From: Yuukianura sp. NJ FZ-2021
Lineage: Eukaryota
Length of the DNA: 64,000 nucleotides
Reading direction: 5' to 3'
Assembly: GCA_046563655.1 (NCBI GenBank)
Contig: CM102286.1
Coordinates: forward strand, 8,246,001 to 8,310,000
The position numbers and the translations under genes were made by a program. The notes beneath the pieces were generated by a model that worked only from the letters and a program-made list of their open reading frames with translations, made no database searches and was not told the origin of the DNA. Each line of letters opens with the position of its first letter. Position 1 is the first letter of the stretch. Shown here one piece after another: positions 15,001-42,211 of the stretch.

Positions 15001-18000
15001 GAAATTGTATTACTTTATTTGGTTGTTCGTATGTGCAACGACGGAACACTTTTTGGTTTCAGCGAATGGAGACCCCTCATAGTGTCACTGAAGGTGCACA
15101 GGAATAAAAATGTGCTATAAAAGCTGTAGATATGTTGAACACTATACGGCAAGATGAACCCAAAGACGAAGTCATGACCACAGGAAATCCCTATAACGCA
15201 TTTACTTGTTCCAAAAACAGCATGAAATGGTAATACTTTAATTTGTTGTTCGTATGTGCAACGGCGGAACACTTTTTGGTTTCAGCGAATGGAAAACCCC
15301 CATACTGTCTCTCAAGGTGCACAGGAATAAAAATGTGCTATAAAAGCTGTAGATATGTTGAACACTATACGGCAAGATGAACCCAAAGACGAAGTCATGA
15401 CCACAGGAAATCCCTATAACGCATTTATTTGTTCCAAAAACAGCATGAAATGGTAATACTTTAATTTGTTGTTCGTATGTGCAACGGCGGAACACTTTTT
15501 GGCTTCAGAGAATAGAAAACCCCCATAGTGTCACTCAAGGTGCACATGAATAACAATGTGCTATAATAGCTGTACATATGTTGCACAATATTCGGCAAGA
15601 TGAACCCGAACAAGAAGGTAAGACCACAGGAATTCCCTATAACGCATTTGTTTATTCCCCCCACAGCATGAAATTGTATTACTTTATTTGGTTGTTCGTA
15701 TGTGCAACGACGGAACACTTTTTGGTTTCAGCGAATGGAGACCCCTCATAGTGTCACTGAAGGTGCACAGGAATAAAAATGTGCTATAAAAGCTGTAGAT
15801 ATGTTGCACACTATACGGCAAGATGAACCCAATGACGAAGTTATTACCACAGGACATCCCTATAACGCATTTATTTGTTCCAAAAACAGCATGAAATTGT
15901 ATTACTTTATTTGGTTGTTCGTATGTGCAACGACGGAACACTTTTTGGTTTCAGCGAATGGAGACCCCTCATAGTGTCACTCAAGGTGCACAGGAATAAA
16001 AATGTGCTATAAAAGCTGTAGATATGTTGAACACTATACGGCAAGATGAACCCAAAGACGAAGTCATGACCACAGGAAATCCCTATAACGCATTTATTTG
16101 TTCCAAAAACAGCATGAAATGGTAATACTTTAATTTGTTGTTCGTATGTGCAACGGCGGAACACTTTTTGGTTTCAGCGAATAGAAAACCCCCATAGTGT
16201 CACTCAAGGTGCACATGAATAACAATGTGCTATAATAGCTGTACATATGTTGCACAATATTCGGCAAGATGAACCCGAACAAGAAGGTAAGACCACAGGA
16301 ATTCCCTATAACGCATTTGTTTATTCCCCCGACAGCATGAAATTGTATTACTTTATTTGGTTGTTCGTATGTGCAACGACGGAACACTTTTTGGTTTCAG
16401 CGAATGGAGACCCCTCATAGTGTCACTCAAGGTGCACAGGAATAACAATATGCTATAAAAGCTGAACATAGGTTGCACACTATACGGCAAGATGAACCCA
16501 AAGACGAAGTTATTACCACAGGACATCCCTATAACGCATTTATTTGTTCCAAAAACAGCATGAAATTGTATTACTTTATTTGGTTGTTCGTATGTGCAAC
16601 GACGGAACACTTTTTGGTTTCAGCGAATGGAGACCCCTCATAGTGTCACTGAAGGTGCACAGGAATAAAAATGTGCTATAAAAGCTGTAGATATGTTGCA
16701 CACTATACGGCAAGATGAACCAAATGACGAAGTTATTACCACAGGACATCCCTATAACGCATTTATTTGTTCCAAAAACAGCATGAAATTGTATTACTTT
16801 ATTTGGTTGTTCGTATGTGCAACGACGGACCACTTTTTGGTTTCAGCGAATGGAGACCCCTCATAGTGTCACTCAAGGTGCACAGGAATAACAATATGCT
16901 ATAAAAGCTGAACATAGGTTGCACACTATACGGCAAGATGAACCCAAAGACGAAGTTATGACCACAGGACATCCCTATAACGCATTTATTTGTTCCAAAA
17001 ACAGCAGGAAATTGTATTACTTTATTTGGTTGTTCGTATGTGCAACGACGGAACACTTTTTGGTTTCAGCGAATGGAGACCCCTCATAGTGTCACTCAAG
17101 GTGCACAGGAATAACAATATGCTATAAAAGCTGAACATAGGTTGCACACTATACGGCAAGATGAACCCAAAGACGAAGTTATGACCACAGGACATCCCTA
17201 TAACGCATTTATTTGTTCCAAAAACAGCATGAAATTGTATTACTTTATTTGGTTGTTCGTATGTGCAACGACGGAACACTTTTTGGTTTCAGCGAATGGA
17301 GACCCCTCATAGTGTCACTGAAGGTGCACAGGAATAAAAATGTGCTATAAAAGCTGTAGATATGTTGCACACTATACGGCAAGATGAACCCAATGACGAA
17401 GTTATTACCACAGGACATCCCTATAACGCATTTATTTGTTCCAAAAACAGCATGAAATTGTATTACTTTATTTGGTTGTTCGTATGTGCAACGACGGAAC
17501 ACTTTTTGGTTTCAGCGAATGGAGACCCCTCATAGTGTCACTGAAGGTGCACAGGAATAAAAATGTGCTATAAAAGCTGTAGATATGTTGCACACTATAC
17601 GGCAAGATGAACCAAATGACGAAGTTATTACCACAGGACATCCCTATAACGCATTTATTTGTTCCAAAAACAGCATGAAATTGTATTACTTTATTTGGTT
17701 GTTCGTATGTGCAACGACGGACCACTTTTTGGTTTCAGCGAATGGAGACCCCACATAGTGTCACTCAAGGTGCACAGGAATAACAATATGCTATAAAAGC
17801 TGAACATAGGTTGCACACTATACGGCAAGATGAACCCAAAGACGAAGTTATGACCACAGGACATCCCTATAACGCATTTATTTGTTCCAAAAACAGCATG
17901 AAATTGTATTACTTTATTTGGTTGTTCGTATGTGCAACGACGGAACACTTTTTGGTTTCAGCGAATGGAGACCCCTCATAGTGTCACTCAAGGTGCACAG

Positions 18001-19592
18001 GAATAACAATATGCTATAAAAGCTGAACATAGGTTGCACACTATACGGCAAGATGAACCCAAAGACGAAGTTATTACCACAGGACATCCCTATAACGCAT
18101 TTATTTGTTCCAAAAACAGCATGAAATTGTATTACTTTATTTGTTGTTCGTATGTGCAACGACGGAACACTTTTTGGTTTCAGCGAATGGAGACCCCTCA
18201 TAGTGTCACTGAAGGTGCACAGGAATAAAAATGTGCTATAAAAGCTGTAGATATGTTGCACACTATACGGCAAGATGAACCCAATGACGAAGTTATTACC
18301 ACAGGACATCCCTATAACGCATTTATTTGTTCCAAAAACAGCATGAAATTGTATTACTTTATTTGGTTGTTCGTATGTGCAACGACGGAACACTTTTTGG
18401 TTTCAGCGAATGGAGACCCCTCATAGTGTCACTCAAGGTGCACAGGAATAAAAATGTGCTATAAAAGCTGTAGATATGTTGCACACTATACGGCAAGATG
18501 AACCAAATGACGAAGTTATTACCACAGGACATCCCTATAACGCATTTATTTGTTCCAAAAACAGCATGAAATTGTATTACTTTATTTGGTTGTTCGTATG
18601 TGCAACGACGGAACACTTTTTGGTTTCAGCGAATGGAGACCCCTCATAGTGTCACTCAAGGTGCACAGGAATAAAAATGTGCTATAAAAGCTGTAGATAT
18701 GTTGAACACTATACGGCAAGATGAACCCAAAGACGAAGTCATGACCACAGGAAATCCCTATAACGCATTTATTTGTTCCAAAAACAGCATGAAATGGTAA
18801 TACTTTAATTTGTTGTTCGTATGTGCAACGGCGGAACACTTTTTGGTTTCAGCGAATAGAAAACCCCCATAGTGTCACTCAAGGTGCACATGAATAACAA
18901 TGTGCTATAATAGCTGTACATATGTTGCACAATATTCGGCAAGATGAACCCGAACAAGAAGGTAAGACCACAGGAATTCCCTATAACGCATTTGTTTATT
19001 CCCCCGACAGCATGAAATTGTATTACTTTATTTGGTTGTTCGTATGTGCAACGACGGAACACTTTTTGGTTTCAGCGAATGGAGACCCCTCATAGTGTCA
19101 CTCAAGGTGCACAGGAATAACAATATGCTATAAAAGCTGAACATAGGTTGCACACTATACGGCAAGATGAACCCAAAGACGAAGTTATTACCACAGGACA
19201 TCCCTATAACGCATTTATTTGTTCCAAAAACAGCATGAAATTGTATTACTTTATTTGGTTGTTCGTATGTGCAACGACGGAACACTTTTTGGTTTCAGCG
19301 AATGGAGACCCCTCATAGTGTCACTGAAGGTGCACAGGAATAAAAATGTGCTATAAAAGCTGTAGATATGTTGCACACTATACGGCAAGATGAACCAAAT
19401 GACGAAGTTATTACCACAGGACATCCCTATAACGCATTTATTTGTTCCAAAAACAGCATGAAATTGTATTACTTTATTTGGTTGTTCGTATGTGCAACGA
19501 CGGAACACTTTTTGGTTTCAGCGAATGGAGACCCCTCATAGTGTCACTGAAGGTGCACAGGAATAAAAATGTGCTATAAAAGCTGTAGATAT
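1..19592. repeat. 223-bp tandem satellite array, left block (~88 monomers), with higher-order structure
   Basis: The same unit (…TTGTTCGTATGTGCAACGACGGAACACTTTTTGGTTTCAGCGAATGG…) recurs head to tail every 223 bp, as shown by the 223-bp spacing of the ORF-track hits. There are three main monomer subtypes. The array runs off the left edge of the window. Confidence 0.99.
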
Positions 19593-20167: not shown

Positions 20168-20988
20168 ATGGCAACTGCTCCAAGTGCAAGTAAAGGCACT
20201 ACCGCTGCGACTGCGACGTGAAAAGTGTCATAAGGTCAATCCCAAAATTCGATGGGAAATCGAATGTTGATCTTTTCTGTGTGAGATGTGATGCTGCGCT
20301 GGAGACAAAGCAAGTTGACTCCAGGTTATTGCTCCTAAATTTTCATCTGCTTCTGGAAGGTGAAGCACAGGATTGGTGGAAATTTGCGCAGATCAAGTAC
20401 ATTAGCGATCTTAGTGACGCTAATAAGGATCAGAAGTGGGAATTGTTGAAACAACAATTAAAATCGTTTTACGAACCTGAGTCGGTTCGTAAAGAAGCGA
20501 AAAAGGCTGCCAGTGCCATTAAGTTTGTTGATTGTAGCTCCGCTGGGGAGTACGTCAGCAAAAAGTTGAGTATCTTTGTGATGCTGGATCCCAATATGTC
20601 GGATAAGAAGCAGGTCGAAAAGTTGACCAAAGGGCTTCCCGACACGCTGCGCAATATTATGTACTGCGCAGAACCGAAAAATCCGACTGAATTTTTGCAA
20701 AAGTTGCGAAAAATGGACAAGCCGGATAAGCCTGACAAACCTAAGTGGGTCAGTAACAAAAATCCCTCTGTGGGTAAGCCAAAGGAGGAATCGAGTTCCT
20801 CGAGGTCATCGAACCTTAGTGATTCGAGTGACACGGCGAAGAAGCCGGCTAAAAAGTTGTGTTATGGTTGTCGTAAAGATGATCATTTCATACGGGATTG
20901 CCCTGACAGAAAGCCGAAGCCGTCGTCTTCTGTCTATGGCGTTGCCGCTGAGACGGCAGAGGAAATCGTTAAGTCAAAAAACGATTGA
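20168..20988 (+). pseudogene. gag: Gypsy A gag (CCHC zinc knuckle), frameshifted near the 5' end
   Basis: ORF 20218-20988 has a retrotransposon-gag-like region (IPKFDG…LLEGEAQDWW) and CYGCRKDDHFIRDC. The upstream ATG at 20168 is in another frame that stops at 20219-20221, implying a frameshift. Confidence 0.85.
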
Positions 20989-21893
20989 GAAAGGTGAAAC
21001 GGGGTCACCTGAAAAACTCCGCAGTTAGTAAGAATCAGTTTCTTACAGAACTTAGTGTTGTAAATTCTTCTCCTGTGTCTTGCTTTGTGCTTGACAGTGC
21101 AGTGGAGAAGAAAGATAAGCAAATTAGGTTAATTAGAACTACGTGTTCTAAGCAAGGGCAAGGGAGGTCATTACCAGCCTCGTGCGTGGTATCAACCTCT
21201 AAGCTTGAAGGTCAAGCCAAGGTGAAGTCAACATCCTCTGTGGATGTTAATGAGATGACTTGTGTTGAAGGTCATTCACTGCCAGCAACCTTCCGCCATA
21301 AACGAATAGGGCCCCGGATTACTACAGAATTTGTTATCTGTAGCAAAGCCTATTCTGTGAGGGTGGATGAGGGTCCAAACTGTGGTACTTACACCGAGGG
21401 AAGCACACAGGGTAACAGTTCATTGCCCTGACATAGTTTCTGGTTCAGTGATCCCGTCACCGAACAGAAGTTTACAGTTTGAACATAACGTAATCCAGCC
21501 CTTTGTGTATGCTGTGATTAGAGATGGTAAGACGGATATTTGGATTACTAATCTGAATAAAGGGAAGGTGAGACTGCCCAGGAATAGTACAATTGCATTT
21601 GGTTCACCTTGTGCTAAAGGTGCCAGTGTCATGCTTCTTAGTGATCATGATGGTACTATGGGAAAGAGTCAGCCTCAGCAGCAAAGTCAGGATGACTTTA
21701 AAATTAATTTGGGGGAGGATCTTACTCTAAGTGAGAAGACGGAAGTCATCAAATTAGTGAAAGAATTTTCTGATGTCTTTGTGACTGACGAATCAAAAGT
21801 GGGGAAGACGAATTTGTTTCGTCATAAGATCGAGACGGGAGATCATCCTCCAATTAGATCTCACCCCTACCGCGCATCATTTGTTGAGCGCAG
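20976..21893 (+). pseudogene. pol: Gypsy A pol, 5' part (protease region disrupted; pre-RT region)
   Basis: The -1 frame is entered at A_AAA_AAC (20976-20982). ORFs 20985-21431 and 21367-21954 end in the typical pre-RT motif HKIETGDHPPIRSHPYR. No intact D-[ST]-G protease motif. Interrupted at 21894 by Gypsy B. Confidence 0.8.
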
Positions 21894-22333
21894 TGAAGCA
21901 GCCGCTCCCTTAGTTCAGGGTCATCCCCAGGTCAGGTCAGGGTGTGTCCCATAGTTAGTGTATATAGTATTCGTATTTAGTATTTTGTTTCGGGTGAGAC
22001 GAGTTGCGAGCTCGGAGGGAGATTCGAGCAGAGGCATGTTTTGTGTGAGTTTAGTGTTAGTATAGAGCTTAGAGCTCAGTCTGGTTTTCGGTTTCGCTCA
22101 GAGAGCATATTAGAGTTATGTGTGCGCTGCTACGAGCAGTTTATTTTGTATATATTCTTTATTGATCAGCTCAATAAATATATGTTTTATATTTATCTTC
22201 GCTGATCTTGTCGTCCGAGTTCCAGGGAGTTATTGTGTCGTTTGCTGGGCATGAGTCTGCGGACTCAGAGAGGAGTCTGATTTGGTGGTGGCCGTGGCCA
22301 TTTTAGTGTTTCCGTAGCGCTGAGGGCGTTACA
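21894..22333 (+). repeat. 5' LTR of Gypsy B
   Basis: Direct repeat of 29364-29803 with one mismatch seen (CAGTTTATTT vs CAGTATATTT). Confidence 0.98.
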
Positions 22334-22335
22334 GA

Positions 22336-22345
22336 TGGCGACCGT
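22336..22345 (+). promoter_or_regulatory. Primer-binding site of Gypsy B, tRNA-Arg-like
   Basis: TGGCGACCGT, 2 nt after the LTR, resembles the tRNA-Arg PBS of mdg1/412-type elements (from recall; not checked against host tRNAs). Confidence 0.7.
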
Positions 22346-22510
22346 TAGTGAGTGTCTCCAGCGACGACAGTGAGGTCAAGAGGTCAAGAGCGAAATTCAG
22401 AAGTTACTGTGGTAACTTTCCCTGTACATATAGCATTAGAGCCGTTTCAAACAGCTCTCTAATTGTCCATAAGCCACTGTCGTGGCTCCATTCTGTTCAT
22501 TCGGACATAA

Positions 22511-23995
22511 ATGACGGAAAAGAAACTCCCAAGTGAGTTACAGAAACTACAGATTGATCCATCCGTGAAATTTCCATTACCAACGGAGGGTCTTTCTCCA
22601 GACCTAGAGGGTCATAACCTACGAAGTAGACACACATCCGGTGTCTCTCCAACTGCTGTTTCATCAGCACAAGCATCTGCCAGTGCCAGCGCCATGGCAA
22701 CATATACAAAAGAAGACATTGACAAAATAGTAGCTGCTGCGGTAGCTAAAGCCGTGCGCGGCGTGGAACAGAGGTTAGTTCCGAAAACTGAAGAAGGAGT
22801 CGCTGCGGTGTCTCCAGGAGGAGGGGTGGACCAGACTCAGGCGCTGATCAATGCCTTAAAGAACGTGAAATTCACGTCCCTCTCATCCAAACTACCACCT
22901 CCCAAGTTTGATACGAAGAAGATGTCAGCAGCAGGCTACCTCGTGGAGGTAGAAAGATATTTTTCGGCTCAAGGACATGCTGAGACGCAGTATCTCTATT
23001 TGATAAAGACGGTCTTACCGTCTGATGTGCATCCTTGGTTGGATCATATTCTCCTGACTGTTACTGATTGGGATGAATTCAAAACTCATTTTACCAACAG
23101 ATATGACAATTGGATAGACGTTGCAGAGCGAACACGTCTTTTACATACGAGAGTTCAACAAGTAAACGAACCAGTTGAACATTTCATTTATGACATGGTA
23201 CGCTGCTCAAGGTTAGTGTATCCAAATGAGTCAGTTGCTGACTCGGTGATGAGGGCTAAGCTTGCCTTATACCCTCGCCTACGTACAGCACTTGGAACTA
23301 ACAGTTATCAAACTGTTGAAACCTTATTTGAAGCTTGTCGTGTGGCTCATGCTAATTTGTCTGCTGAAGATAAACTTAATAAAGACAAAAACATGAAATT
23401 GCCGCCGATTGTCAAAGTTGACTCCAAAAATTCAGAAACTGAAAAAACTGAAACTGACAATTCGGGGTCAAATGGGAATTCAAAAAATCATGGAAATTCA
23501 GGAAATCATTACAAAAAAGGAGGAGCCAATCATTTTGGCTATCGGGGAAATCACTTCAGAGGTAGAGGTGGTTATTCCAGAAATGAGCAAAGCCAGGCTC
23601 ACACCGGAAATGAGGGTCAGTTTACTAGCCCCAATCAAGAGACTGGCAATGGACCAGCTCAAGGTCAAACGTCCAGGCCGTCATCTCAAGATGCCACTAG
23701 CAGCAACAATTCGCCAAATCGCGGCAGAGGAGGTTTCCGTGGAAACCGAGGAGGTAACCCAAGAGGCCGTGGGAATGGTAGAGGAAGTGGTGGAGGTCAT
23801 CCACCTGACCCAGGCGACGTTATGTGTTTCCGTTGCGGTGGATATGGACACAAACAGTTTCAGTGTCCTACTAATATGGGTGCGGCCCTAGGAGCATTTA
23901 GTGAAGCCACGAAGGATGTAGTGGCTCAAGTGGAAGGTGGGAATCAGGCTCAAGGGCCTTCAACGTCATCCAACGCTAAGGAGAAGTTAAACTAA
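22511..23995 (+). CDS. gag: Gypsy B Gag (494 aa; RGG-rich region and CCHC knuckle)
   Basis: Uninterrupted ORF with a capsid-like region (PPKFD…WDEFKTHFTNRY…EPVEHFI), RGG repeats and CFRCGGYGHKQFQC. Confidence 0.93.
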   Translation: MTEKKLPSELQKLQIDPSVKFPLPTEGLSPDLEGHNLRSRHTSGVSPTAVSSAQASASASAMATYTKEDIDKIVAAAVAKAVRGVEQRLVPKTEEGVAAVSPGGGVDQTQALINALKNVKFTSLSSKLPPPKFDTKKMSAAGYLVEVERYFSAQGHAETQYLYLIKTVLPSDVHPWLDHILLTVTDWDEFKTHFTNRYDNWIDVAERTRLLHTRVQQVNEPVEHFIYDMVRCSRLVYPNESVADSVMRAKLALYPRLRTALGTNSYQTVETLFEACRVAHANLSAEDKLNKDKNMKLPPIVKVDSKNSETEKTETDNSGSNGNSKNHGNSGNHYKKGGANHFGYRGNHFRGRGGYSRNEQSQAHTGNEGQFTSPNQETGNGPAQGQTSRPSSQDATSSNNSPNRGRGGFRGNRGGNPRGRGNGRGSGGGHPPDPGDVMCFRCGGYGHKQFQCPTNMGAALGAFSEATKDVVAQVEGGNQAQGPSTSSNAKEKLN

Positions 23996-26900
23996 TGGAG
24001 GGGAATGACGTGTCGTCCATCATTCACCCAACTTTAATCCAAATTTCGGACGAATCTATTCCATTTGTGAGTGTGACTGCCTATGAGTCAAGATTTTTGG
24101 CTATTTTTGATACGGGGTGTTCGCAGTCACTCATTGTAAAAAGTTTATGTAAAAAATTAAATTCAGTTGTTGTTCCTTTAGAAAACAAAACAACAACAAC
24201 AATGAATAATGAAGAGCTGCGTTTAAGCGGCTATGCCTTTGTATATATTAAAATTGGGGGGAGGACTGTTCGATTTAAATTTTACGTAGCAGACACTCTT
24301 CCAGTTCCGTGTGTCTTGGGTTCTGATTTCATTGCTCAGAACGACATTGTGCTTAGGCTGCGGTCTAAAGAGTTTTGGTTTGGTGGAGAAGAGAGCCATA
24401 AATTCAAATTGGCTTTTGCGGCTGGTACTACCGGTTCCGCATATTTCGCAATTGCTTTACCAGAAAGCAAACAAGATGATGAAATTAAAGAAAAAGTACA
24501 TCAAGTACTTTCGCAATTTCCGACTGTGGTCAGAGACGATGGAAAATTAGGAAGGACGGATTGGACTCATCACATTATAGAAGACGAAGGTTACCCGCCT
24601 GCGAGGAATCCTTACAAAAAATCACCAGCTATCCAAGCCGTGATTAATCAACAAATTGACCAATTACTCAAGGAGGGTATAGTGAGACATTCCAGATCAC
24701 CTTATGCTGCACCAGTAGTGATGGTTCCGAAGAAAGATGGCAGTTTAAGACTCTGTGTTGATTATACATGTCTCAACCAACAAACTAAAACGAATGCTAC
24801 GCCTATGGAAAGTGCACATTCAATTTTACATTCCATTCCGTCAGATCATTGGTACACAGTGGTCGATTTGGATCGTGGTTATTGGCAAGTTCTTTTACAT
24901 CCAGACAGTGTCGAGAAATCGGCATTTGTGACTCAGGACGGGCACTACGAATTTTTAGTGATGCCATTTGGACTAAAGAATAGTCCTAAGACTTGCCAAC
25001 AACTGATCAGGAAAGTTATCCGAGGATATTCCAATTTTGCGAAGGGTTATATGGATGATATTATCATCTTCAGTAAGACAGTGGAAGAGCACATGGTGCA
25101 TCTGTCTAAAATTTTAACTAGGCTTAAGTTGGCTGGCCTAACCCTTACTCGCAAAAAGTTACAGTTATGTCAAAGGGAAATTGATGTATTAGGACACAAG
25201 CTTTCAGCTAATGGGTTAAAAAAGTGTCCTCAGAAAGTTCAGGCGATTGTAGATTTTCCTACTCCTAGAAATGTAAAGGAAGTTCAACGTTTCCATGGAA
25301 TGGCTCAGTGGTATGCCAGTTTTATTGAACATTTTGCAGAGAAAGCAGAGCCGATGTATCGGCTATTAAGGAAAAGTCAACCATGGGTCTGGGGAGTTGA
25401 ACAGCAGAAGTCATTCGAAGCTATCAAAGAAGCCATGTGCAACGATGTTATGCTTCATGCAGTGGACTACAATCATCCGATTTTACTAAAATGTGATGCT
25501 TCAATGTTGGGGTTGGGAGCAGCCTTAACACAAGTTATCAATGGAGTGGAGCGACCAGTCATGTTCATTAGTAAGACTTTGCGAAAGTCTGAGTTACGCT
25601 ACCACATTTATGAAAAGGAGCTCTTTGCAATCATTTGGGCGTACAGGAAGCTCCGTGAGTACATTGAAGGTCAGCAATTTACCATAATTACTGACAACAA
25701 GGCTCTATCGTTTCTCCATAAGATGAAAGAACGAAAAGCAAAATTGGGTGCTTGGGATGTGGAGATTAAATCATGGGGAGTGCCGATCAAACATCGTGCG
25801 GGGAAGGAGAATGTGGAAGCGGACGCGCTTTCTCGTGCTCCAGTGCCAGTGCAAGATGATGATTTGGATTTTGACGACGACTCTCCGGAATACATGTATG
25901 CGCCAACGGCCGTGGCCTTACTGTCATTCGATGCTCCATCATTCCAGAAGATGCAAGAGGAACAAGAGAAGGATGACGCACTCAAGAAGATAATCCAAGA
26001 TGTAAAAAGTGGCAAAAAAGTAGAGAAATACGCCATGCGGAATGGCTTACTCAAGCGAAAAGTCAAAGGTTTTGACTCAAAATCCAATGAGGAGAGCTGC
26101 GGTGAACTCATTGAGGAGCAATGTGCGGAAAAGAGGCCTCATTCTTCCGACATTACTCAAAAAGACGTCATTCGGACTGCCCAGCAGGCTCGAAATCAAG
26201 AAGAAACTCAAGAGAAAGAGTTATGGGTGACAGTGGTACCGAAACTACTCGTCCCTGAAATTTTGAAAATCTTCCATGATGTCCCAGAAGCGGCACATCT
26301 CGGAATCAGAGCCACTAAGATGAAGATTAAAAGAAGATTTTATTGGGATCATATGAATAAGGACATTCATGATTATGTCAGATCAAGTCCCTGGTGTCAA
26401 GCCGTGAAATCCGCAAATCACAAACCGTTTGGACTACTGCATGCTGCGGCACCGTCGAGTCAAGTGTTTGAAAAAATTTTCGTGGACTTTCTAGGCCCCC
26501 TACCAAGAAGTAAAAACGGTAATCAGTACTTGTTCGTTGTGGAAGATGATCTGTCAAAATGGGTGGAGCTGTTCCCAATGCGGAAAGCAACCGCTCAGAA
26601 AGTTGTCAAAGTTCTTGTGGATGAAATTTTTTGCAGATATGGGACTGTTAAAACGATTATATCAGACAATGCTAGTCAGTTTTTGTCTAAAGTCATGGAG
26701 AAAATGACTAAAGAGTGGAACATTAATCATGTTCCAATCAGTCCATATCATGCTCAAGCAAATTCCGTTGAACGAGTCAATAGAAACTTAAAGCCAATGT
26801 TACAGGCTTATGTAGGCTCTAATCATAAAAGTTGGGATGAGCACCTACAAAAGTTCGCTTTGGCGATGAGAACTTCAGTACATGAGACAACTAAAGTTAC

Positions 26901-27498
26901 TCCATCTTTATTGAATTTAGGAAGAGAGATTCCGTTGCCAATTGATAGAAGACTGCAAGGAGATGCGTCTCAAGGTCATTCAAAAGATGTGGATTTATCA
27001 ATGGTTCCAGAGCAGTTACAAGAAATTATTCAATTTGTGCGGAAAAATATAGCACAGGCTCAGGAGCATAACAAAAAGTACTATGATCAAAGACACATTG
27101 AGCCAAAGTTCAAGGTTGGAGACTTAGTGCTAATTAAAAGTCATAAATTGTCTAATAAAAGTAAAGGAGTCATGCAAAAATTGACTTTACGGTATGTTGG
27201 ACCGTATCAGATAAGTGAGGTATTAACTCCAGTTACATTTCAGTTGGTGACATTGCCAGACAAGGAGAAGTTTGGTAAGCGACACGTCGCAGAGTTAAAA
27301 CCGTACACTGTCAGAAGATCGCAATTTCGCGTTCCAGTTGTATCTGCTGTGTCAGAGGATTCGTCTGACTCTGAGGAAGACACTCTGCCGGTGAGGAGAT
27401 CAACTCGCGTGAAGCAGCGTGTTAACTACAGGACTCTCGCTGGATACAGGAGCAAGAAGAAGCAGTCCGTTCCAGCTCAAAGTAGTGCCAATACTTAA
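23995..27498 (+). CDS. pol: Gypsy B Pol (PR-RT-RH-IN, 1167 aa)
   Basis: Protease FDTG; RT (LCVDY, MPFGL, YMDD); RNase H (CDAS, EKEL, TDN); integrase (VDF, SDN, VER) and GPY motif. Uninterrupted. Confidence 0.98.
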   Translation: MEGNDVSSIIHPTLIQISDESIPFVSVTAYESRFLAIFDTGCSQSLIVKSLCKKLNSVVVPLENKTTTTMNNEELRLSGYAFVYIKIGGRTVRFKFYVADTLPVPCVLGSDFIAQNDIVLRLRSKEFWFGGEESHKFKLAFAAGTTGSAYFAIALPESKQDDEIKEKVHQVLSQFPTVVRDDGKLGRTDWTHHIIEDEGYPPARNPYKKSPAIQAVINQQIDQLLKEGIVRHSRSPYAAPVVMVPKKDGSLRLCVDYTCLNQQTKTNATPMESAHSILHSIPSDHWYTVVDLDRGYWQVLLHPDSVEKSAFVTQDGHYEFLVMPFGLKNSPKTCQQLIRKVIRGYSNFAKGYMDDIIIFSKTVEEHMVHLSKILTRLKLAGLTLTRKKLQLCQREIDVLGHKLSANGLKKCPQKVQAIVDFPTPRNVKEVQRFHGMAQWYASFIEHFAEKAEPMYRLLRKSQPWVWGVEQQKSFEAIKEAMCNDVMLHAVDYNHPILLKCDASMLGLGAALTQVINGVERPVMFISKTLRKSELRYHIYEKELFAIIWAYRKLREYIEGQQFTIITDNKALSFLHKMKERKAKLGAWDVEIKSWGVPIKHRAGKENVEADALSRAPVPVQDDDLDFDDDSPEYMYAPTAVALLSFDAPSFQKMQEEQEKDDALKKIIQDVKSGKKVEKYAMRNGLLKRKVKGFDSKSNEESCGELIEEQCAEKRPHSSDITQKDVIRTAQQARNQEETQEKELWVTVVPKLLVPEILKIFHDVPEAAHLGIRATKMKIKRRFYWDHMNKDIHDYVRSSPWCQAVKSANHKPFGLLHAAAPSSQVFEKIFVDFLGPLPRSKNGNQYLFVVEDDLSKWVELFPMRKATAQKVVKVLVDEIFCRYGTVKTIISDNASQFLSKVMEKMTKEWNINHVPISPYHAQANSVERVNRNLKPMLQAYVGSNHKSWDEHLQKFALAMRTSVHETTKVTPSLLNLGREIPLPIDRRLQGDASQGHSKDVDLSMVPEQLQEIIQFVRKNIAQAQEHNKKYYDQRHIEPKFKVGDLVLIKSHKLSNKSKGVMQKLTLRYVGPYQISEVLTPVTFQLVTLPDKEKFGKRHVAELKPYTVRRSQFRVPVVSAVSEDSSDSEEDTLPVRRSTRVKQRVNYRTLAGYRSKKKQSVPAQSSANT

Positions 27499-27548
27499 TT
27501 TACTGTGTCCTAAAAAGTCAAATTGTTGACTACAATCTCCATTTCATC

Positions 27549-29297
27549 ATGTCAGGACGGTTAGTGGAATTGTCCAGTGCGAAGAAGAATTCGTTGGATT
27601 TTTGGCAAAGAAGACGTGACTGTTTAAGGAAGTATGGTAAAGCCAAGGAGAGGCCACAGGATATTCACTCATTGTACTTGAACGATGCCAAAGTACGAAA
27701 CACGTTGCGTGTTTTTCCTTACTCTGTTCATCCACTCAAGTGTGACGTTGATACTTGGCAGTTAGACAAGTATTTGTCTGAAAAAACTCAAAGTGTCAAA
27801 GTGTACAGTGATACTCGGAAGGATACTCCACTCGTCATAGTGGATACGGACAGTCAGTTCCGTAAGATGGTAAAGGAAATTAGGAAACATAAGGTAATTG
27901 CGATTGATCTTGAAATGAGTCTTGAAAGTGCCTATTTAGACAGATTTATCTGTCTCCTCCAGTTGTCAGTACGAGGTACTGATTATCTTATTGATCCGTT
28001 TGCCATGGTACTTCAATGTCAACTTTTGAAAGAATTCTTCCAGGACTCAAGTTATTTGAAGCTGTTCCATGGTGGGATGAACGATTTACTGGCCCTTCAA
28101 CTGCACTTACAAATCTTCATGGTTGGCGTCGTCGATGTGCAAATTGTACATAGTGTGTTCCGACATAGCCAACAAGTTGGCTTTGAGACTGTGGTTGCAG
28201 ACTATTTGGGCTCAGAGGTCATGGTAACCAAGGATTGTCAATTGGCTGATTGGTCAATTCGTCCCATAAGTCACATGCATAAATCCATGCTGGAATATGC
28301 ACGTAGTGACTCACATTTGCTGTTAAAAGTTTGGGTTGCCATGCGAAGTTTACACGGGTTGGATACCTGTTGTACCCAATGGAAGGAAGTGCTCCGTAGG
28401 TGCAACCAAATGTGCCTAAAAATGTATATAATTCGTCAGAAACCTACTCCCAATGAGTTGTGTTTTAAGTTGGGTGTGGCTGCGGTCAACTCATCATTGT
28501 TACGCCAAGTTTTTGAGTGGCGAGAACAAGTGTCGCGTGAACGTGACATGCAACCAGTCGATTTCTTACAAGACACTATTTGTCTTCAATTGGCTAAGTT
28601 TAAGCCTTGTACAGAGTATGAAGTCAACACGTTGACTGGACATAAGGAAATTTGGTTTAATCATCTAAATCAACTGATTGATCTTTTCAGTTCGAGTAAA
28701 CCCATGGTTGGACTAGGAGTTGGAGCGTCAACTTCTAATCAGTCTTCTGTTCGCCAGTGGTCTTCTGCAGATGTGGATTGGGAAGTCCCCATAATGGATC
28801 CGAAGTTGCTCGGAAGCAGTCGAAGCTGCACTGTCACGTCCGGAAGTTTGACTGCAAAGAAGACAGGCACAGCGCGAGAAGTGGAATTGGTAGACATTTC
28901 GGAAGAGGAATTGGACGATGTCATGGATGTGGACCCAGTCGAGGCTCAAGATGACGTTTTGGTCTTGTCTGTTTCTCAAAAGGAGCTGGATTCGTTATCT
29001 CCTCCGATGGCAGTTGACTCAGACCCGGTTCGTGTTGTCACTCTCATCCAGAAACAGAAGCCTCAGCCTGTCAGAAAAGAAAAAGATCCACGCTGTAAGC
29101 AGTGTGGAAACCCGAATCACCACGAAGACGATTGCTGGTTCAAGGAGTTGCCAATGGAGTGGCGAAGCATATCTTCCAAAACGCCCGGAGGCGTAGAAAC
29201 TACTTCGGGAACGTGGCAAATCATGCCAAAGGAGCTGCACTCCGGAAGAAAGTGGATCAGCGTCGGAAGGGGAAGATGGTCGATGCGGCCGCTTTAG
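27549..29297 (+). CDS. Gypsy B ORF3: Rrp6/EXOSC10 (RNase D family) DEDDy 3'-5' exonuclease + HRDC + CCHC knuckle
   Basis: ExoI IAIDLE; ICLLQLS…DYLID; ExoII KLFHGGMND; QLADWSIRP; ExoIII MLEYARSDSHLLL. HRDC-like VFEWREQVSRERD…LQLAKFKP; knuckle CKQCGNPNHHEDDC. No introns; lies between pol and the PPT. Confidence 0.92.
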   Translation: MSGRLVELSSAKKNSLDFWQRRRDCLRKYGKAKERPQDIHSLYLNDAKVRNTLRVFPYSVHPLKCDVDTWQLDKYLSEKTQSVKVYSDTRKDTPLVIVDTDSQFRKMVKEIRKHKVIAIDLEMSLESAYLDRFICLLQLSVRGTDYLIDPFAMVLQCQLLKEFFQDSSYLKLFHGGMNDLLALQLHLQIFMVGVVDVQIVHSVFRHSQQVGFETVVADYLGSEVMVTKDCQLADWSIRPISHMHKSMLEYARSDSHLLLKVWVAMRSLHGLDTCCTQWKEVLRRCNQMCLKMYIIRQKPTPNELCFKLGVAAVNSSLLRQVFEWREQVSRERDMQPVDFLQDTICLQLAKFKPCTEYEVNTLTGHKEIWFNHLNQLIDLFSSSKPMVGLGVGASTSNQSSVRQWSSADVDWEVPIMDPKLLGSSRSCTVTSGSLTAKKTGTAREVELVDISEEELDDVMDVDPVEAQDDVLVLSVSQKELDSLSPPMAVDSDPVRVVTLIQKQKPQPVRKEKDPRCKQCGNPNHHEDDCWFKELPMEWRSISSKTPGGVETTSGTWQIMPKELHSGRKWISVGRGRWSMRPL

Positions 29298-29352
29298 CAG
29301 CTCGTCGTCAAGAGATTGCTCGCCGTACTGCTGTTCGTCGGAGCAACTCTTT

Positions 29353-29363
29353 GGAGGGGAAGG
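29353..29363 (+). promoter_or_regulatory. Polypurine tract of Gypsy B
   Basis: GGAGGGGAAGG immediately before the 3' LTR. Confidence 0.85.
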
Positions 29364-29803
29364 TGAAGCAGCCGCTCCCTTAGTTCAGGGTCATCCCCAG
29401 GTCAGGTCAGGGTGTGTCCCATAGTTAGTGTATATAGTATTCGTATTTAGTATTTTGTTTCGGGTGAGACGAGTTGCGAGCTCGGAGGGAGATTCGAGCA
29501 GAGGCATGTTTTGTGTGAGTTTAGTGTTAGTATAGAGCTTAGAGCTCAGTCTGGTTTTCGGTTTCGCTCAGAGAGCATATTAGAGTTATGTGTGCGCTGC
29601 TACGAGCAGTATATTTTGTATATATTCTTTATTGATCAGCTCAATAAATATATGTTTTATATTTATCTTCGCTGATCTTGTCGTCCGAGTTCCAGGGAGT
29701 TATTGTGTCGTTTGCTGGGCATGAGTCTGCGGACTCAGAGAGGAGTCTGATTTGGTGGTGGCCGTGGCCATTTTAGTGTTTCCGTAGCGCTGAGGGCGTT
29801 ACA
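29364..29803 (+). repeat. 3' LTR of Gypsy B
   Basis: Direct repeat of 21894-22333, followed by TSD GCAG. Confidence 0.98.
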
Positions 29804-29807
29804 GCAG

Positions 29808-31409
29808 GAAGATCAAGGAAAAGGTCCAAGCTTTGTGCGATGCGGGAATTGTGGAAGAATCAATTTCCCCGTGGGCCGCGCCTGTTGTGCTAGTCCCAAA
29901 GAAGGATGGCTCATCAAGGTTGTGCATTGACTTCCGGAAGATTAACGCAATTACGAAGAAGAATGCGTACCCGTTACCGAGAATGGAAGACGCTCTAGAC
30001 CGCCTTGGTGGCGCTAGGTACTTCACTGTACTCGATTTGGTATCTGGGTTTTACCAAATCGAAGTGGATGAAAAAGACCAAGAGAAAACGGCCTTTGTGA
30101 CGCCGGACGGTCTGTACCAATTTAGACGTCTACCCATGGGACTCTGTAACACTCCTTCTAGTTTTCAATACCTAATGGACGTTGTGCTATCAAACCTTAA
30201 GTGGGAGAGCACCTTAGTGTATTTGGATGACGTAATTGTGTGGGGAAAGACATTTGAGGAACATCAGTTGCGCCTCAGGACAGTGTTAAGTCGTTTTCGT
30301 GACGCTAACTTGACATTGAAAATTTCTAAGTGTAAATTTGGATTGACAAAAATTTTGTATCTTGGACATGTCATTTCCAGTGAGGGAGTCGAGGTAGATC
30401 AGGATAATTGTCTGCAGTGACTAAGTTTCCTGTACCTAAAACTCCAACACACATTCGTTCTTTTGTGAACATGTGTGGGTACTACCGAAGATTCATAAAA
30501 GGTTTTGGGAAAATTGCTGCTCCATTGAATTTTCTTTTAAGAAAAGATCAAGACTTTGTGTGGGGAGCTGAGCAAAATGAAGCCTTTGAGAAGTTGAAAC
30601 TAGCCTTAGTGACTAGCCCAATTTTGGCATTCCCTATGGAAGGAATTCCATTTGAGATCCATTGTGATGGAAGTGGCTTTGGACTTGGAGCAAGCTTAGT
30701 GCAAATCCAGGAAGGTCAACCACGAGTCATTGCCTATGCCAGCAGAGCAATGACGGACATTGAAAAGAGGTACACTTCCAGCGAGTTGGAATGGTTGGCT
30801 GTCGTGTACGCTGTACAGAAGTTCCGACCCTATGTGTACGGTACTCATTTTACCGTAGTGACAGACCACAGTGCGTTAAAGTGGCTCTTCTCTGTGAAGG
30901 ACCCCAATGGTCGTCTTGCGAGATGGTCCTTTGTGTTGCAGGCACAGGACATGACCATCGTACACAGGGCTGGAAAGGTCGCGAATGACGTTGACCCCTT
31001 GTCAAGGTTTCCAGTAGATCCACCAGAGGCAATGCATTCCTCTGAATGCTTAGTGCTGGACGGAGTGGACTGGAAAGAGAGTCAAGCTCAAGACCCATGG
31101 ATAAGGAAGGTCATTGACTCCATTGAGCAAGCTGAGTGCGCCTCTGGATCAGGCAAGAAAAATCCATCCATAAGACATATGGAGGATTACACATTGAAAG
31201 ACGGAATTTTGTATTCCGCTAATTTAGAGCCTGAAGGTCGCTCTTGGAGGCTAGTAGTGCCTAAAGGACTGAGAAAGCGAGTTCTCGAGACGGTACACGC
31301 AGGTGACCTAAGTGGACATTTTGGCGTGACGAGAACATGGAGCTGTGTGAAATCCCGCTTTTTCTGGAAGGGAATGTATCGTGACGTGCGTAGATTTGTT
31401 CTAGGATGC
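29808..31409 (+). pseudogene. pol: Gypsy A pol, RT-RNase H-integrase Zn-finger segment
   Basis: RT (LCIDFR, LPMGL, YLDD); 1-bp frameshift near 30405; RNase H (HCDGS, VTDH); HHCC start VHAGDLSGHFG…GC, which is cut by the BEL insertion. Confidence 0.95.
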
Positions 31410-31990
31410 TGTTGAGAATTACTCAGCATATCCCAAATGGGAATAGAAATAATTTTAATATCAATTTGAAATGGGTTTAGGTTTAACGGAAATTGAAAGT
31501 AGAATTAAGTTTTAACTTAGAAGTTAATTTGACCTCAGAAGAGAGGAGAAGAGAATTTAATGTAAGATGAGATGAGAAGTGTTCAAAGGGTTAATTTAAT
31601 CCACTTGTGTGGAATCAAAGGGAAAGGGTTAGCATCTACTATTAATGTGAAAATACTATTAGTGTACTACTGACATGCGCATTAGAGTTGGGATAGTATG
31701 TGTATGTAAAAGTCAACACTCTCTCAATCTTTTCTCAAGTTAAAATCAACGCTTTTCTCTCCCTCTTTTTTACACACACAAAAAGTACAAGAAAAGAAGA
31801 GAGTCTCCTACTAGCCTTTGCAGAGGCAGCAACTAACACATAGATTCTCACCTGTCACTTCTCGTTTTAGTCACTTTTCAATTAGAAATTTTAGAGAGTA
31901 ATGTTAGTTTTCAAGTTCTATTATTAAATAAATCAATCAATACGAAATCGTTCAGTGTTCAGAATCTGGCATTCCATCCAACAATCTTCA
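31410..31990 (+). repeat. 5' LTR of BEL/Pao element
   Basis: Direct repeat of 45772-46352 with 2 mismatches seen. Confidence 0.97.
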
Positions 31991-41012: not shown

Positions 41013-41494
41013 TTTTATATTCACTACGACAAGGTGTTTACGCTCTATGAATCCTTTGTATCTGATTTCCACTCAGCGAGAAGAAAAGAGATAAAGAAAG
41101 AATATATCTTGTCCGCTTATGATCTGTGACTGAATGAATTCTCCATCAGCGTGTAGGACTTATACTCCTCCTCATCCTCCACACCCGGCTTCTCAGACAA
41201 CCCAAAACCACGCTTTTACTACTCCTCTTCCTCCTCCTCAGATAACTGAAGAGCATGCCTATACTCCTCCTCCTCCCCTCCTCTTCAAACAACTGAAGAG
41301 CAGGCCTATACTCCTCCTCCTCCCCTCCTGCTCAGATGACTGAAGAGCATGCCTATACTCCTCCTCGGCGGAAGAGCTTAGCGATACTCCTACTCCTCCT
41401 CCTCAGTCCAACACAGACCGGTCCATAACATCGCTCATCCTACACCCAACCTAACCTAACTTCATGGCATCATACTCGAATCATTTTATCTTAT

Positions 41495-41722
41495 TACACC
41501 GGACTTTTGTCAAACTGTGTTGTAATTTCAATAAACTACACTGGACTTTCGTCAAACTGTTTTGTAATTTCAATAAACTACATCGGACTTTTGTCAAACT
41601 GTTTTGTAATTTCAATAAACTACACTGGACTTTCGTCAAACTGTTTTGTAATTTCAATAAACTACACCGGAGTTTTCTCAAGATGTTTTGTAATTTCAAC
41701 CAATTACACTAGACTTTTCTCA
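41495..41722. repeat. 42-bp minisatellite (~5.4 copies) in the palindrome spacer
   Basis: Unit TACACYGGACTTTYGTCAAACTGTTTTGTAATTTCAATAAAC. Confidence 0.95.
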
Positions 41723-42211
41723 GTTGCCGGGGTATTTCCACCCCCAATACGTCGCTCTTGTGTAATGCTATGCATTGGGTGTAGGATGAGCGATGTTATG
41801 GACCGGTCTGTGTTGGACTGAGGAGGAGGAGTAGGAGTATCGCTAAGCTCTTCCGCCGAGGAGGAGTATAGGCATGCTCTTCAGTCATCTGAGCAGGAGG
41901 GGAGGAGGAGGAGTATAGGCCTGCTCTTCAGTTGTTTGAAGAGGAGGGGAGGAGGAGGAGTATAGGCATGCTCTTCAGTTATCTGAGGAGGAGGAAGAGG
42001 AGTAGTAAAAGCGTGGTTTTGGGTTGTCTGAGAAGCCGGGTGTGGAGGATGAGGAGGAGTATAAGTCCTACACGCTGATGGAGAATTCATTCAGTCACAG
42101 ATCATAAGCGGACAAGATATATTCTTTCTTTATCTCTTTTCTTCTCGCTGAGTGGAAATCAGATACAAAGGATTCATAGAGCGTAAACACCTTGTCGTAG
42201 TGAATATAAAA

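Follow-up and report, generated by a model that had tools for sequence, protein, structure and literature searches.

Retrotransposons rarely carry accessory enzymes, and where one occurs it points to a step in the element's life cycle or in host defence that lies beyond the core genes. A close described case is that of the bdelloid rotifer LTR elements Juno and Vesta, in which ORF3 encodes a DEDDy exonuclease; such ORFs also occur in Athena/Terminon (Rodriguez, Kenefick and Arkhipova 2017, PMC5408684). According to that paper the rotifer ORF is RNase D-like, lies 3′ of pol as the third ORF of an LTR retrotransposon and has no transmembrane or coiled-coil features of an env; HHpred was needed for its recognition, it has DEED for DEDD, and a Cys-His motif was noted in Vesta2 and Vesta5. 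The errantivirus-like env is likewise a third ORF, in the interval between pol and the polypurine tract. Among cellular enzymes, bacterial RNase D joins the exonuclease domain (EXO) to HRDC without exosome-docking parts and acts alone on structured RNA 3′ ends; it carries a pair of HRDC-like domains and lacks a knuckle. Rrp6/EXOSC10, the catalytic subunit of the nuclear exosome, has EXO followed by HRDC and in addition PMC2NT, which binds Rrp47. Nibbler/Mut-7 and EXD1 are stand-alone proteins of the same fold that act on or bind transposon-targeting small RNAs, EXD1 being inactive.

We analysed a stretch of 64,000 nucleotides (the window) in which a Ty3/Gypsy element carries an Rrp6-like ORF3. 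It shares with Juno and Vesta the position of the gene, the class of element and the lack of env features, and differs in that Pfam recognises it directly (E 1e-28) with DEDD intact, in its EXO-HRDC order (the text of the rotifer paper makes no mention of HRDC) and in its host phylum. A dUTPase is found in pol of three of the four rotifer lineages, and no dUTPase family is among the Pfam matches of the window's pol. The two sets of ORF3 were compared by their descriptions (PMC5408684). The earlier note on this DNA, made from its letters, knew of no such system. That claim has to be narrowed, DEDDy ORF3s being known from rotifer LTR elements, and it may still hold for the Rrp6-like EXO-HRDC-knuckle form: in our literature search, with Repbase/Dfam and subscription journals outside it, no Gypsy element of springtails or other arthropods was described as having an Rrp6/HRDC-type ORF3.

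The Gypsy element and its third ORF

The features of the element and of its insertion site are as follows.

20218..21893, + strand: older unrelated Gypsy copy, left part (gag, RT start), from ORFs
21890..21893, + strand: target-site duplication GCAG, 5′ copy, read from the letters and from empty-site contigs
21894..22333, + strand: 5′ LTR, 440 nt, TG...CA, single mismatch to the 3′ LTR at 22141
22336..22352, + strand: putative primer-binding site TGGCGACCG..., 2 nt past the LTR, read from the letters
22511..23995, + strand: gag (494 aa); its CCHC knuckle is weak, Pfam zf-CCHC E 0.0095, under cut-off
23995..27498, + strand: pol, 1167 aa, with protease, RT, RNase H, integrase and Tf2-type SH3 (ORF and Pfam)
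27549..29297, + strand: ORF3, 582 aa, Rrp6-like exonuclease gene with ATG start (ORF, Pfam, phmmer)
29353..29363, + strand: polypurine tract GGAGGGGAAGG, abutting the 3′ LTR, read from the letters
29364..29803, + strand: 3′ LTR, 440 nt, paired with the 5′ LTR
29804..29807, + strand: target-site duplication GCAG, 3′ copy, read from the letters and from empty-site contigs
29808..31415, + strand: interrupted older Gypsy copy, right part (RT, RNase H, integrase start), from ORFs

The segment 21894-29803 (7,910 bp) is a young, structurally intact Ty3/Gypsy element, inserted in one piece into an older Gypsy copy that lies in satellite-rich DNA. It has TG..CA LTRs of 440 bp with 1 mismatch, a 4-bp target duplication, a primer-binding site, a polypurine tract and an empty site, and its pol is ordered PR-RT-RH-IN (aa 30-112, 244-403, 466-591 and 748-919 by Pfam). 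The empty-site contigs, present in three of four sequencing runs (X1, X2, X4), read straight from 21889 to 29804, the two sides sharing 4 letters. RT of the older Gypsy resumes at 29812-31400, with 29-41% identity to the pol of the inserted element. No tRNA gene was found in the window.

ORF3 begins 50 nt past the pol stop (27496-27498) in a different frame, and ends 5′ of the polypurine tract. The place is that of an errantivirus-like env, but ORF3 has no Pfam match to an env-like family and no hydrophobic segment outside the exonuclease fold that could serve as a signal peptide; since its most hydrophobic 20-aa stretch is a strand within that fold, a membrane anchor is lacking as well, and we reject an env-like ORF3. 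Its parts are listed below.

27549..27830, + strand: aa 1-94, family-specific N-terminal helical module (F..G..RPQD..N..FP..HP..W), from family alignment and HMM
27834..28346, + strand: aa 96-266, DEDDy 3′-5′ exonuclease domain, Pfam PF01612 (DNA_pol_A_exo1) E 1.5e-28
28494..28640, + strand: aa 316-364, HRDC, Pfam E 1.5e-3 and 18.9 bits, under the 23.8 cut-off
28710..29081, + strand: aa 388-511, acidic linker, predicted disordered (pLDDT <50)
29094..29135, + strand: aa 516-529, CCHC zinc knuckle CX2CX4HX4C, CKQCGNPNHHEDDC, from the letters and a family tail HMM (E 2.6e-4)

The exonuclease match reaches 100.2 bits against a cut-off of 23.6, and all of the catalytic residues (D120, E122, D179, Y250, D254) are present and align to the Rrp6 motifs: DLE at aa 120-122 (27906-27914), HGGMND at aa 174-179 (28068-28085) and YARSD at aa 250-254 (28296-28310). 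Further motifs are CLLQLS (27951-27968), DYLID (27981-27995) and QLADWSIRP (28239-28265). The AF2 model has pLDDT >90 across most of aa 10-385, with 92-98 at aa 10-70 in the N-terminal module, and its helical bundle at HRDC extends to about aa 385. Given the HRDC matches of the family, the confidence of the model to aa 385 and the Foldseek alignments described below, HRDC is placed directly C-terminal of the exonuclease domain. Past the knuckle, alignment and tail HMM did not reveal the basic tail of the knuckle-bearing relatives. A basic tail reached by frameshift was also considered; a candidate Arg-rich stretch, in a frame other than that of ORF3, scored no better than E 0.23 with the tail HMM, and we make no claim for it.

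Cellular relatives of the ORF3 protein

Rrp6 is the best match of ORF3 by both sequence and structure. With phmmer against solved structures, yeast Rrp6 scored E 7.3e-27 over ORF3 aa 60-363, well past anything due to chance, followed by human EXOSC10 (E 1.4e-17) and E. coli RNase D (E 1.1e-10); Foldseek with the AF2 model gave human, yeast and T. brucei Rrp6 catalytic cores first (E about 1e-19, 328-363 columns), then RNase D (2e-13), Nibbler (2e-9), EXD1 (3e-7) and Egalitarian (about 3e-7). The order EXO then HRDC, the DEDDy residues and an 'HP' segment before EXO are likewise shared with Rrp6. RNase D is much more distant and served as the outgroup of the tree below. Nibbler and EXD1 were absent from the phmmer matches at E up to 1e-3, and the aligned part of Nibbler/Mut-7 and EXD1 has no HRDC of the Rrp6 kind. 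ORF3 encodes a stand-alone protein of the RNase D/Rrp6 family. The earlier note had read from the letters an element-borne EXO-HRDC enzyme of this type in which no DEDDy residue is missing and a CCHC knuckle follows, and here Pfam, phmmer and Foldseek agree with it; its bounds for ORF3, its motif and knuckle coordinates and its single LTR difference (located here at 22141) were all reproduced, and the profile searches that it proposed returned DNA_pol_A_exo1 firmly and HRDC under the cut-off.

The differences from Rrp6 lie at both ends of the protein. PMC2NT (PF08066) has no Pfam match in ORF3, as the earlier note had held, and the N-terminal module that ORF3 does have is specific to its family. 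Of the roles that note had offered, an exosome decoy is unlikely, since the docking module is absent. Past HRDC, ORF3 has its acidic linker and CCHC knuckle, and no similarity to the C-terminal part of Rrp6 was detectable; the alignment to full-length yeast Rrp6 stops at HRDC (aa 363), and the region beyond is poorly conserved generally. Finally, ORF3 is retrotransposon-encoded and falls in a separate sister clade.

When ORF3 was run through a word-indexed protein search, the 31 proteins returned were all canonical Rrp6 or RNase D, with identity no higher than 36% over short stretches, and ESM Atlas gave only canonical Rrp6 clusters with every score <0.9. The relatives of ORF3 proper surfaced only in an exhaustive HMMER search (4543 matches, E up to 1e-3), headed by the protein P0032 (37% identity, E 1e-75). 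At least 36 protein clusters (<50% mutual identity) have the N-terminal module without PMC2NT. The HMM of the module matches 39 of 181 proteins, none of which matches a PMC2NT-like HMM that 80 others do match. The exonuclease domain is present in 27 of 27 family proteins and HRDC in 21 of the 27 (best E 6.5e-11), and 13 of the 36 clusters have a CCHC knuckle. The catalytic residues persist although identity has fallen to 20-37%: 33 of 36 clusters retain the full D-E-D-Y-D set, and three have lost residues of it. All of the named members are from springtails (Orchesella).

We built a tree of core-domain rows with IQ-TREE (single-matrix LG+G4, 76 rows x 257 columns, rooted on bacterial RNase D and without Mut-7/Nibbler, EXD1/2 or WRN rows). 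The family clade received 100/96 and the canonical Rrp6 clade 98/97, with the bootstrap not fully settled; FastTree and a quick IQ-TREE run agree in placing the ORF3 family apart from canonical Rrp6. Judging from this tree, the family is an old, diverse clade, sister to canonical eukaryotic Rrp6. The earlier note's picture of an old and maintained gene fits the sister clade, the 28-30% identity of ORF3 to canonical Rrp6 and the 33 of 36 clusters with catalytic residues kept. Its proposed origin, capture of a host Rrp6 mRNA, finds no support in the tree, where the family nests inside no sampled host Rrp6 group.

The depth of the family bears on two further readings. In one, the fold is kept in a catalytically dead RNA-binding adaptor, as in EXD1, Maelstrom or Egalitarian, for RNA packaging or localisation, for example. 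Foldseek does match EXD1 and Egalitarian, and the knuckle and basic tail are RNA-binding features, but inactive DEDD derivatives normally lose their catalytic residues, whereas ORF3 has all five DEDDy residues, as do 33 of its 36 relatives, themselves <50% mutually identical; we consider this reading very improbable. In the other, a single copy of the element recently took up a host Rrp6 transcript and carries it as neutral cargo. The single ORF3 copy in the window would suit such a passenger. It would not explain an ORF3 only 28-30% identical to any canonical Rrp6 found and placed in a separate clade, the same gene in elements at 42-50% pol identity, or the diverged copies that cover ORF3 in sequencing runs. 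The chance of a recent capture is negligible, and we reject it on the low Rrp6 identity, the separate clade and the presence of the gene in related elements.

Linkage to Gypsy pol

We searched for related loci with a five-sequence family alignment and read the genomic flanks of 10 contigs with a family member, eight of these loci having at least 1.5 kb of upstream flank. In four of the 10 contigs the member lies 3′ of a related Gypsy gag/pol. L003 is complete (LTR-gag-pol-ORF3-LTR), L004 and L006 have pol and then ORF3, and in L009 an ORF3 fragment comes after gag-PR-RT-RH. Compared with the window's element, identity is 42/50/45% in pol, 30/34/35% in ORF3 and 29% in gag (L003). Where flanks are readable, then, family members stand repeatedly just 3′ of a related Gypsy pol, and gag, pol and ORF3 diverge together. 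This bears on the earlier note's question whether ORF3 travels with the same pol, and an ORF3 unique to one element gives way to a large family tied to related Gypsy pols. An Orchesella cincta gene model, P0213, reads RH-IN and then an exonuclease fragment. This short model is the only fusion seen; a search of longer proteins for pol-ORF3 fusions with the family profile returned three matches, all of them canonical Rrp6 in long gene models.

Of the eight loci with that much upstream flank, four (L001, L002, L005, L007) showed no Gypsy pol. L007 is decayed. At L001 and L002 a 363-aa family member has no pol within 6-9 kb upstream, and at both a C2H2 zinc-finger ORF comes before it; dN/dS between the two members is 0.12, a sign of constraint that also speaks for the reading favoured below. 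These two loci suit a reading in which the family consists of cellular genes of springtail-like arthropods, captured several times by Gypsy and other elements, as do several family members of Orchesella dallaii that are annotated as separate genes on large contigs. Automatic gene models are often built on transposable element copies, so such annotation is weak evidence. Against repeated capture, the pol-linked members (the window, P0032 at L004, P0035 at L003, and L006) are spread across the knuckle-bearing subclade, P0072/P0200 would tentatively add one in the other subclade, and the identities of gag, pol and ORF3 drop together. A family of host paralogues is thus quite improbable, and those members of the ORF3 family that public gene models call 'ribonuclease D' or 'HRDC domain-containing protein' probably represent transposon genes.

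Function of the exonuclease

We favour, as probable taken whole, a long-standing Gypsy ORF3 that encodes an active, exosome-independent 3′-5′ exoribonuclease serving the element. ORF3 would be an accessory gene in a lineage of Gypsy elements whose hosts are probably springtails or other arthropods of the soil, and its product would be a metal-dependent enzyme acting outside the exosome. The knuckle or the basic tail may recruit the protein to RNA, most likely that of the element's own ribonucleoprotein. There its targets would be the single-stranded 3′ ends, to be trimmed or removed, of RNAs that serve or hinder reverse transcription. Candidate substrates are the primer tRNA, the 3′ end of the genomic RNA and cDNA overhangs. 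That the substrates are the element's own replication RNAs and ends is the weakest step and somewhat doubtful; degradation of host small silencing RNAs by ORF3 is nearly as likely.

In a fuller form of the latter, the active enzyme degrades or over-trims host piRNA/siRNA, their precursors or surveillance-marked transcripts, and not replication intermediates. Enzyme identity and long maintenance are equally consistent with this, and the structural relatives include the small-RNA trimmer Nibbler and EXD1; Rrp6 and RNase D are, however, far closer by sequence, and the Gag-like knuckle points equally to the element's own RNP. At L005 the family member adjoins a PolB/integrase set and appears to be part of a DNA element of Maverick/Polinton-like type, which has no reverse transcription; this fits a role not bound to one replication mechanism, but the assignment of L005 is based on a PolB match under the Pfam cut-off. 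According to the rotifer paper, the rotifer ORF type is also common to a second class of mobile element, to which L005 is a possible parallel, and a silencing-related role was raised for it (PMC5408684). We regard an attack on host silencing as rather unlikely overall. Still less probable is its broadest version: an Rrp6-like clade specific to transposable elements, at least as old as the carrier arthropod lineages and common to Gypsy and Maverick/Polinton-like elements, that destroys small RNAs or their precursors and so suppresses silencing or surveillance. If true, it would be an animal counterpart, among transposable elements, of the viral silencing suppressors.

In the favoured reading, as in the others in which the enzyme is active, a catalytic core of the exosome kind travels with Gypsy elements without its PMC2NT docking module. 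It offers a handle on whether LTR elements process their own RNA 3′ ends or directly counter small-RNA silencing or the surveillance of nuclear RNA. With it, what was seen in rotifers in 2017 now reaches another animal phylum, in a far more recognisable form of the enzyme; with rotifer and arthropod-like cases, such exonucleases may be a recurrent retroelement module and not a rotifer oddity.

Signals for ORF3 expression were sought around its start. A scan for a splice acceptor upstream of ORF3 gave nothing convincing. Read-through or frameshifting from pol was set aside, as the frame of ORF3 differs and is open only from 27486, and the relatives are inconsistent: pol and ORF3 of L004 share one frame across one stop, and L003 and L006 differ. 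ORF3 exists in more than one copy: parts of it are matched, at about 91-95% likeness, by contigs from the source organism and from a second organism label, and in the sequencing runs some copies are shorter by 66 nt (28343-28410) or 303 nt (29032-29336).

The Gypsy element and its third gene

ORF3 is enclosed by a Ty3/Gypsy element of 7,910 bp, whose features follow in window coordinates.

21894-22333, + strand, 5′ LTR (440 nt, TG...CA)
22511-23995, + strand, gag
23995-27498, + strand, pol (protease, RT, RNase H, integrase and Tf2-type SH3, by Pfam)
27549-29297, + strand, ORF3 (ATG start, 582 aa)
27906-27914, + strand, ORF3 motif DLE
28068-28085, + strand, ORF3 motif HGGMND
28296-28310, + strand, ORF3 motif YARSD
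29094-29135, + strand, ORF3 knuckle, CX2CX4HX4C
29364-29803, + strand, 3′ LTR (440 nt, TG...CA)

The LTRs differ at one position, as had been noted, with the single mismatch at 22141. A 4-bp duplication (GCAG) flanks the element, a putative primer-binding site opening with TGG lies 2 nt past the 5′ LTR, and the 3′ LTR is directly preceded by a polypurine tract. The ORF3 start codon follows the pol stop at a distance of 50 nt, and the two ORFs are in different frames. The insertion split the RT of another Gypsy copy, which is older and unrelated. Contigs from three of four public runs join 21889 straight to 29804, with four letters shared; this is the empty site, and the whole LTR-gag-pol-ORF3-LTR structure was therefore inserted as one unit. 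Around the element is a 223-bp satellite (1-19592 and 48744-53349; ~88 and 21 copies, 90-91% matches), whose framing of the window's transposon-rich middle suggests heterochromatin. Two 47-bp arrays (41222-41366 and 41858-42002) are mutual reverse complements on either side of a 42-bp tandem array (41495-41722), and the pair may mark the termini of a further mobile element. An integrase-like fragment at 46436-47269, 29% identical to aa 825-1111 of the element's pol, is part of a third Gypsy-like remnant.

A direct sequence check reproduced every motif of the earlier note exactly, including CLLQLS, DYLID and QLADWSIRP, and its domain call was right: Pfam DNA_pol_A_exo1 matches ORF3 aa 96-266 (E 1.5e-28). 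HRDC matches aa 316-364 at E 1.5e-3, under Pfam's own cut-off. Phmmer matched 18 distinct sequences of solved structures, the top one yeast Rrp6 (E 7.3e-27, aa 60-363), with T. brucei Rrp6 (1e-20), human EXOSC10 (1.4e-17) and E. coli RNase D (1.1e-10) also found. An AlphaFold2 model (mean pLDDT 75.4), built on an alignment of 27 related proteins, has pLDDT >90 over most of aa 10-385, family-specific N-terminal helices included, 70-81 in the knuckle region, and <50 in the linker (aa 388-511) and tail. The best Foldseek matches of this model in PDB are the human, yeast and T. brucei Rrp6 catalytic cores (E 1.3e-19 to 4e-17, 328-375 aligned columns); ranking lower are E. coli RNase D (2e-13), T. 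brucei RNase D (~1e-9), Nibbler (2e-9), and EXD1, Egalitarian and WRN (~1e-7 to 1e-6).

ORF3 comprises a complete Rrp6-type catalytic core, HRDC and a Gag-type knuckle. Neither PMC2NT nor similarity to Rrp6 after HRDC was found in it. PMC2NT is the domain that binds Rrp47, and the exosome core is the docking site of the Rrp6 C-terminus. A role as exosome decoy is unlikely because PMC2NT is absent. An env-like role was excluded, there being no membrane segment anywhere in ORF3. The tail past the knuckle (29136-29297) is unlike the basic tail of knuckle-bearing relatives, and an Arg-rich stretch in another frame of this region matches the family tail profile only at E 0.23.

The exonuclease family and its phylogeny

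A word-indexed protein search with ORF3 returned only canonical Rrp6, at 28-30% identity. Exhaustive HMMER search gave 4543 matches, topped by proteins of ~500-600 aa that align to ORF3 from their own N-termini; the best family match is P0032 (37% identity, E 1e-75). The 27 aligned members share a plan of N-terminal module (signature F..G..RPQD..N..FP..HP..W), EXO, HRDC and acidic linker, ending in a CCHC knuckle and basic tail in one subclade and the basic tail alone in the other. Pfam finds the exonuclease domain in all 27 and HRDC in 21. Among 181 proteins examined, an HMM of the N-terminal module matches 39; a PMC2NT-like HMM matches 80 canonical proteins and none of these 39, and 62 match neither.

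Taking N-module E <1e-6, dropping a cluster duplicate (P0180) and excluding weak matches (P0150, P0171) left 36 family members, each representing one cluster at 50% identity. The knuckle is present in 13 of them. The catalytic D-E-D-Y-D set is intact in 33 (the exceptions are P0035, P0042 and P0089), which makes it unlikely that the ORF3 protein serves as a catalytically dead RNA-binding adaptor. A kinetoplastid cluster (ESM Atlas, rank 18) has DNA_pol_A_exo1 with zf-CCHC in 61% of its members, so the exonuclease-plus-knuckle combination also exists in an unrelated cellular setting.

The EXO+HRDC cores of the 36 family members were placed in a tree with 24 of the 80 canonical proteins (every third by HMM rank), seven source-named or look-alike bacterial RNase D and nine of the 62 unclassified proteins, with no Mut-7/Nibbler, EXD or WRN rows. 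FastTree, quick IQ-TREE and careful IQ-TREE gave the same topology. In the careful run (LG+G4 single-matrix model, 76 rows x 257 columns, bootstrap not fully settled) the family forms a single clade (100/96) together with P0144, an N-terminally incomplete "unclassified" protein, and ORF3 is sister to P0032 (100/95). The canonical eukaryotic proteins form a separate clade (98/97), into which presumed bacterial P0025 falls; the remaining six bacterial rows are the outgroup. The family is thus Rrp6-like in origin and not nested in any sampled host Rrp6. Of the proposed capture of a host Rrp6 mRNA, the Rrp6-like origin stands, but the tree places the family outside the sampled host proteins and names neither donor nor date.

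Linkage to pol, hosts and copies

Scanning metagenomes with an alignment of five family sequences gave 10 loci (L001-L010), four of which have same-strand Gypsy genes upstream of the family member. L003 is a full element with gag, pol (PR-RT-RH-IN-SH3), ORF3 and LTR pieces (1-162 and 7996-8157, 99% identity); L004 has integrase-SH3 then ORF3 (EXO 1.6e-32, HRDC 2.8e-9); L006 has RH-IN-SH3 then ORF3, truncated where the contig ends; in L009, gag, PR and RT-RH precede an ORF3 fragment. Compared with the window element, L003, L004 and L006 are respectively 42%, 50% and 45% identical in pol and 30%, 34% and 35% in ORF3, and the gag of L003 is 29% identical. The three genes diverge together, the nearest pol (L004) going with the nearest ORF3 (P0032). 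The module HMM matches all six readable ORFs (L001-L006). Rather than the single capture previously envisaged, ORF3 is a family trait of a Gypsy lineage, with pol-linked relatives, and the gene has been long maintained in this transposon-linked clade. In the closest relative (L004:1-3288) a single stop codon separates pol and ORF3 in one frame, unlike the window element, L003 and L006; this could reflect coincidence or a layout for read-through in that element.

L001, L002, L005 and L007 speak against the linkage. L001 (8385-10637) and L002 (5023-7547) hold a knuckle-less 363-aa member and a preceding C2H2 zinc-finger ORF, and the upstream sequence lacks pol for 9.5 kb in L001 and 6.4 kb in L002. 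The two are 80% identical with dN/dS of 0.12 over 362 codons, and L002 has one stop; this member is possibly a domesticated copy, or carried by another kind of element. L005 (1433-8226) has a family member (N-module HMM E 7e-18) and three other ORFs on one strand: PolB-like (PF03175 E 2.4e-5, just under cut-off), weakly ATPase-like, and rve integrase (E 8.5e-9). By these ORFs it looks like a Maverick/Polinton-type DNA element, and such sharing of the exonuclease between element classes would parallel the ORF sharing reported for rotifers. L007 is decayed, and L008 and L010 are too short for judging pol linkage.

Organism names were available for four of the 30 family clusters checked, in each case the springtail Orchesella dallaii; some others are labelled "ribonuclease D" by JGI pipelines. 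The window's pol has protein matches at 53-55% identity, the nearest named being O. dallaii (49%) and O. cincta (39%). In an O. cincta gene model (P0213), RNase H and integrase are followed by an exonuclease fragment. Pol match P0197 and family member P0035 come from same-sized contigs (8283), which are L003; for P0196/P0043 (7614) and P0200/P0072 (7558) we infer a shared contig likewise.

The runs provide only contigs, which can reveal that a sequence is present but neither its copy number nor its expression. Source-sample contigs (X1 records 6 and 7) cover ORF3 without differences. Diverged contigs cover part of ORF3 at 27398-27719 (X2 record 13; 29 differences, 3 gaps) and a piece of its 3′ part, 28731-29208 (X3 record 21; 26 differences, 3 gaps), the latter from a run of another organism label and study. 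Variants in the runs lack 66 nt (28343-28410) or 303 nt (29032-29336), and the second of these, seen in part of the run copies, takes in the tail.

Candidate function and precedents

As 3′-5′ exoribonucleases, Rrp6 and RNase D work distributively, depend on metal, and attack structured RNAs at their single-stranded 3′ ends, and nucleocapsid CCHC knuckles bind element RNA. The ORF3 protein would be an exosome-independent RNA 3′-end trimmer whose knuckle or tail recruits it to RNA. As its substrate we tentatively put first the element's replication complex (primer tRNA, cDNA overhangs or the 3′ end of the genomic RNA). Only slightly less likely, as a close second, are small silencing RNAs of the host or targets of surveillance.

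The earlier note knew of no description of such a system. Rodriguez, Kenefick and Arkhipova (2017; PMC5408684) had in fact used HHpred to detect DEDDy exonuclease ORF3s resembling RNase D, with DEED replacing DEDD, in the LTR families Juno and Vesta of bdelloid rotifers and also in Athena/Terminon elements; these ORFs are nearer one another than to cellular homologues, and the authors describe DEDDy exonucleases in retrotransposons as previously unreported. Their text makes no mention of HRDC. Two reviews (PMC6431247, PMC5718144) restate these ORF3s for rotifers only, and the DnaQ-like exonuclease appears in an opinion paper's list of known accessory domains (PMC6338049). In the open literature outside Repbase/Dfam, searches for HRDC or Rrp6-like proteins in Gypsy or other retrotransposons, for RNase D in LTR retrotransposons, and for exonuclease with Collembola or Orchesella (PMC3985635 included) gave nothing relevant. 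What appears new is the clearly Rrp6-type form, in which a knuckle and a distinctive N-terminal module accompany the EXO-HRDC core, along with the breadth of the family (36 or more clusters, at under 50% identity), its arthropod link and its possible presence in a Maverick/Polinton-like element.
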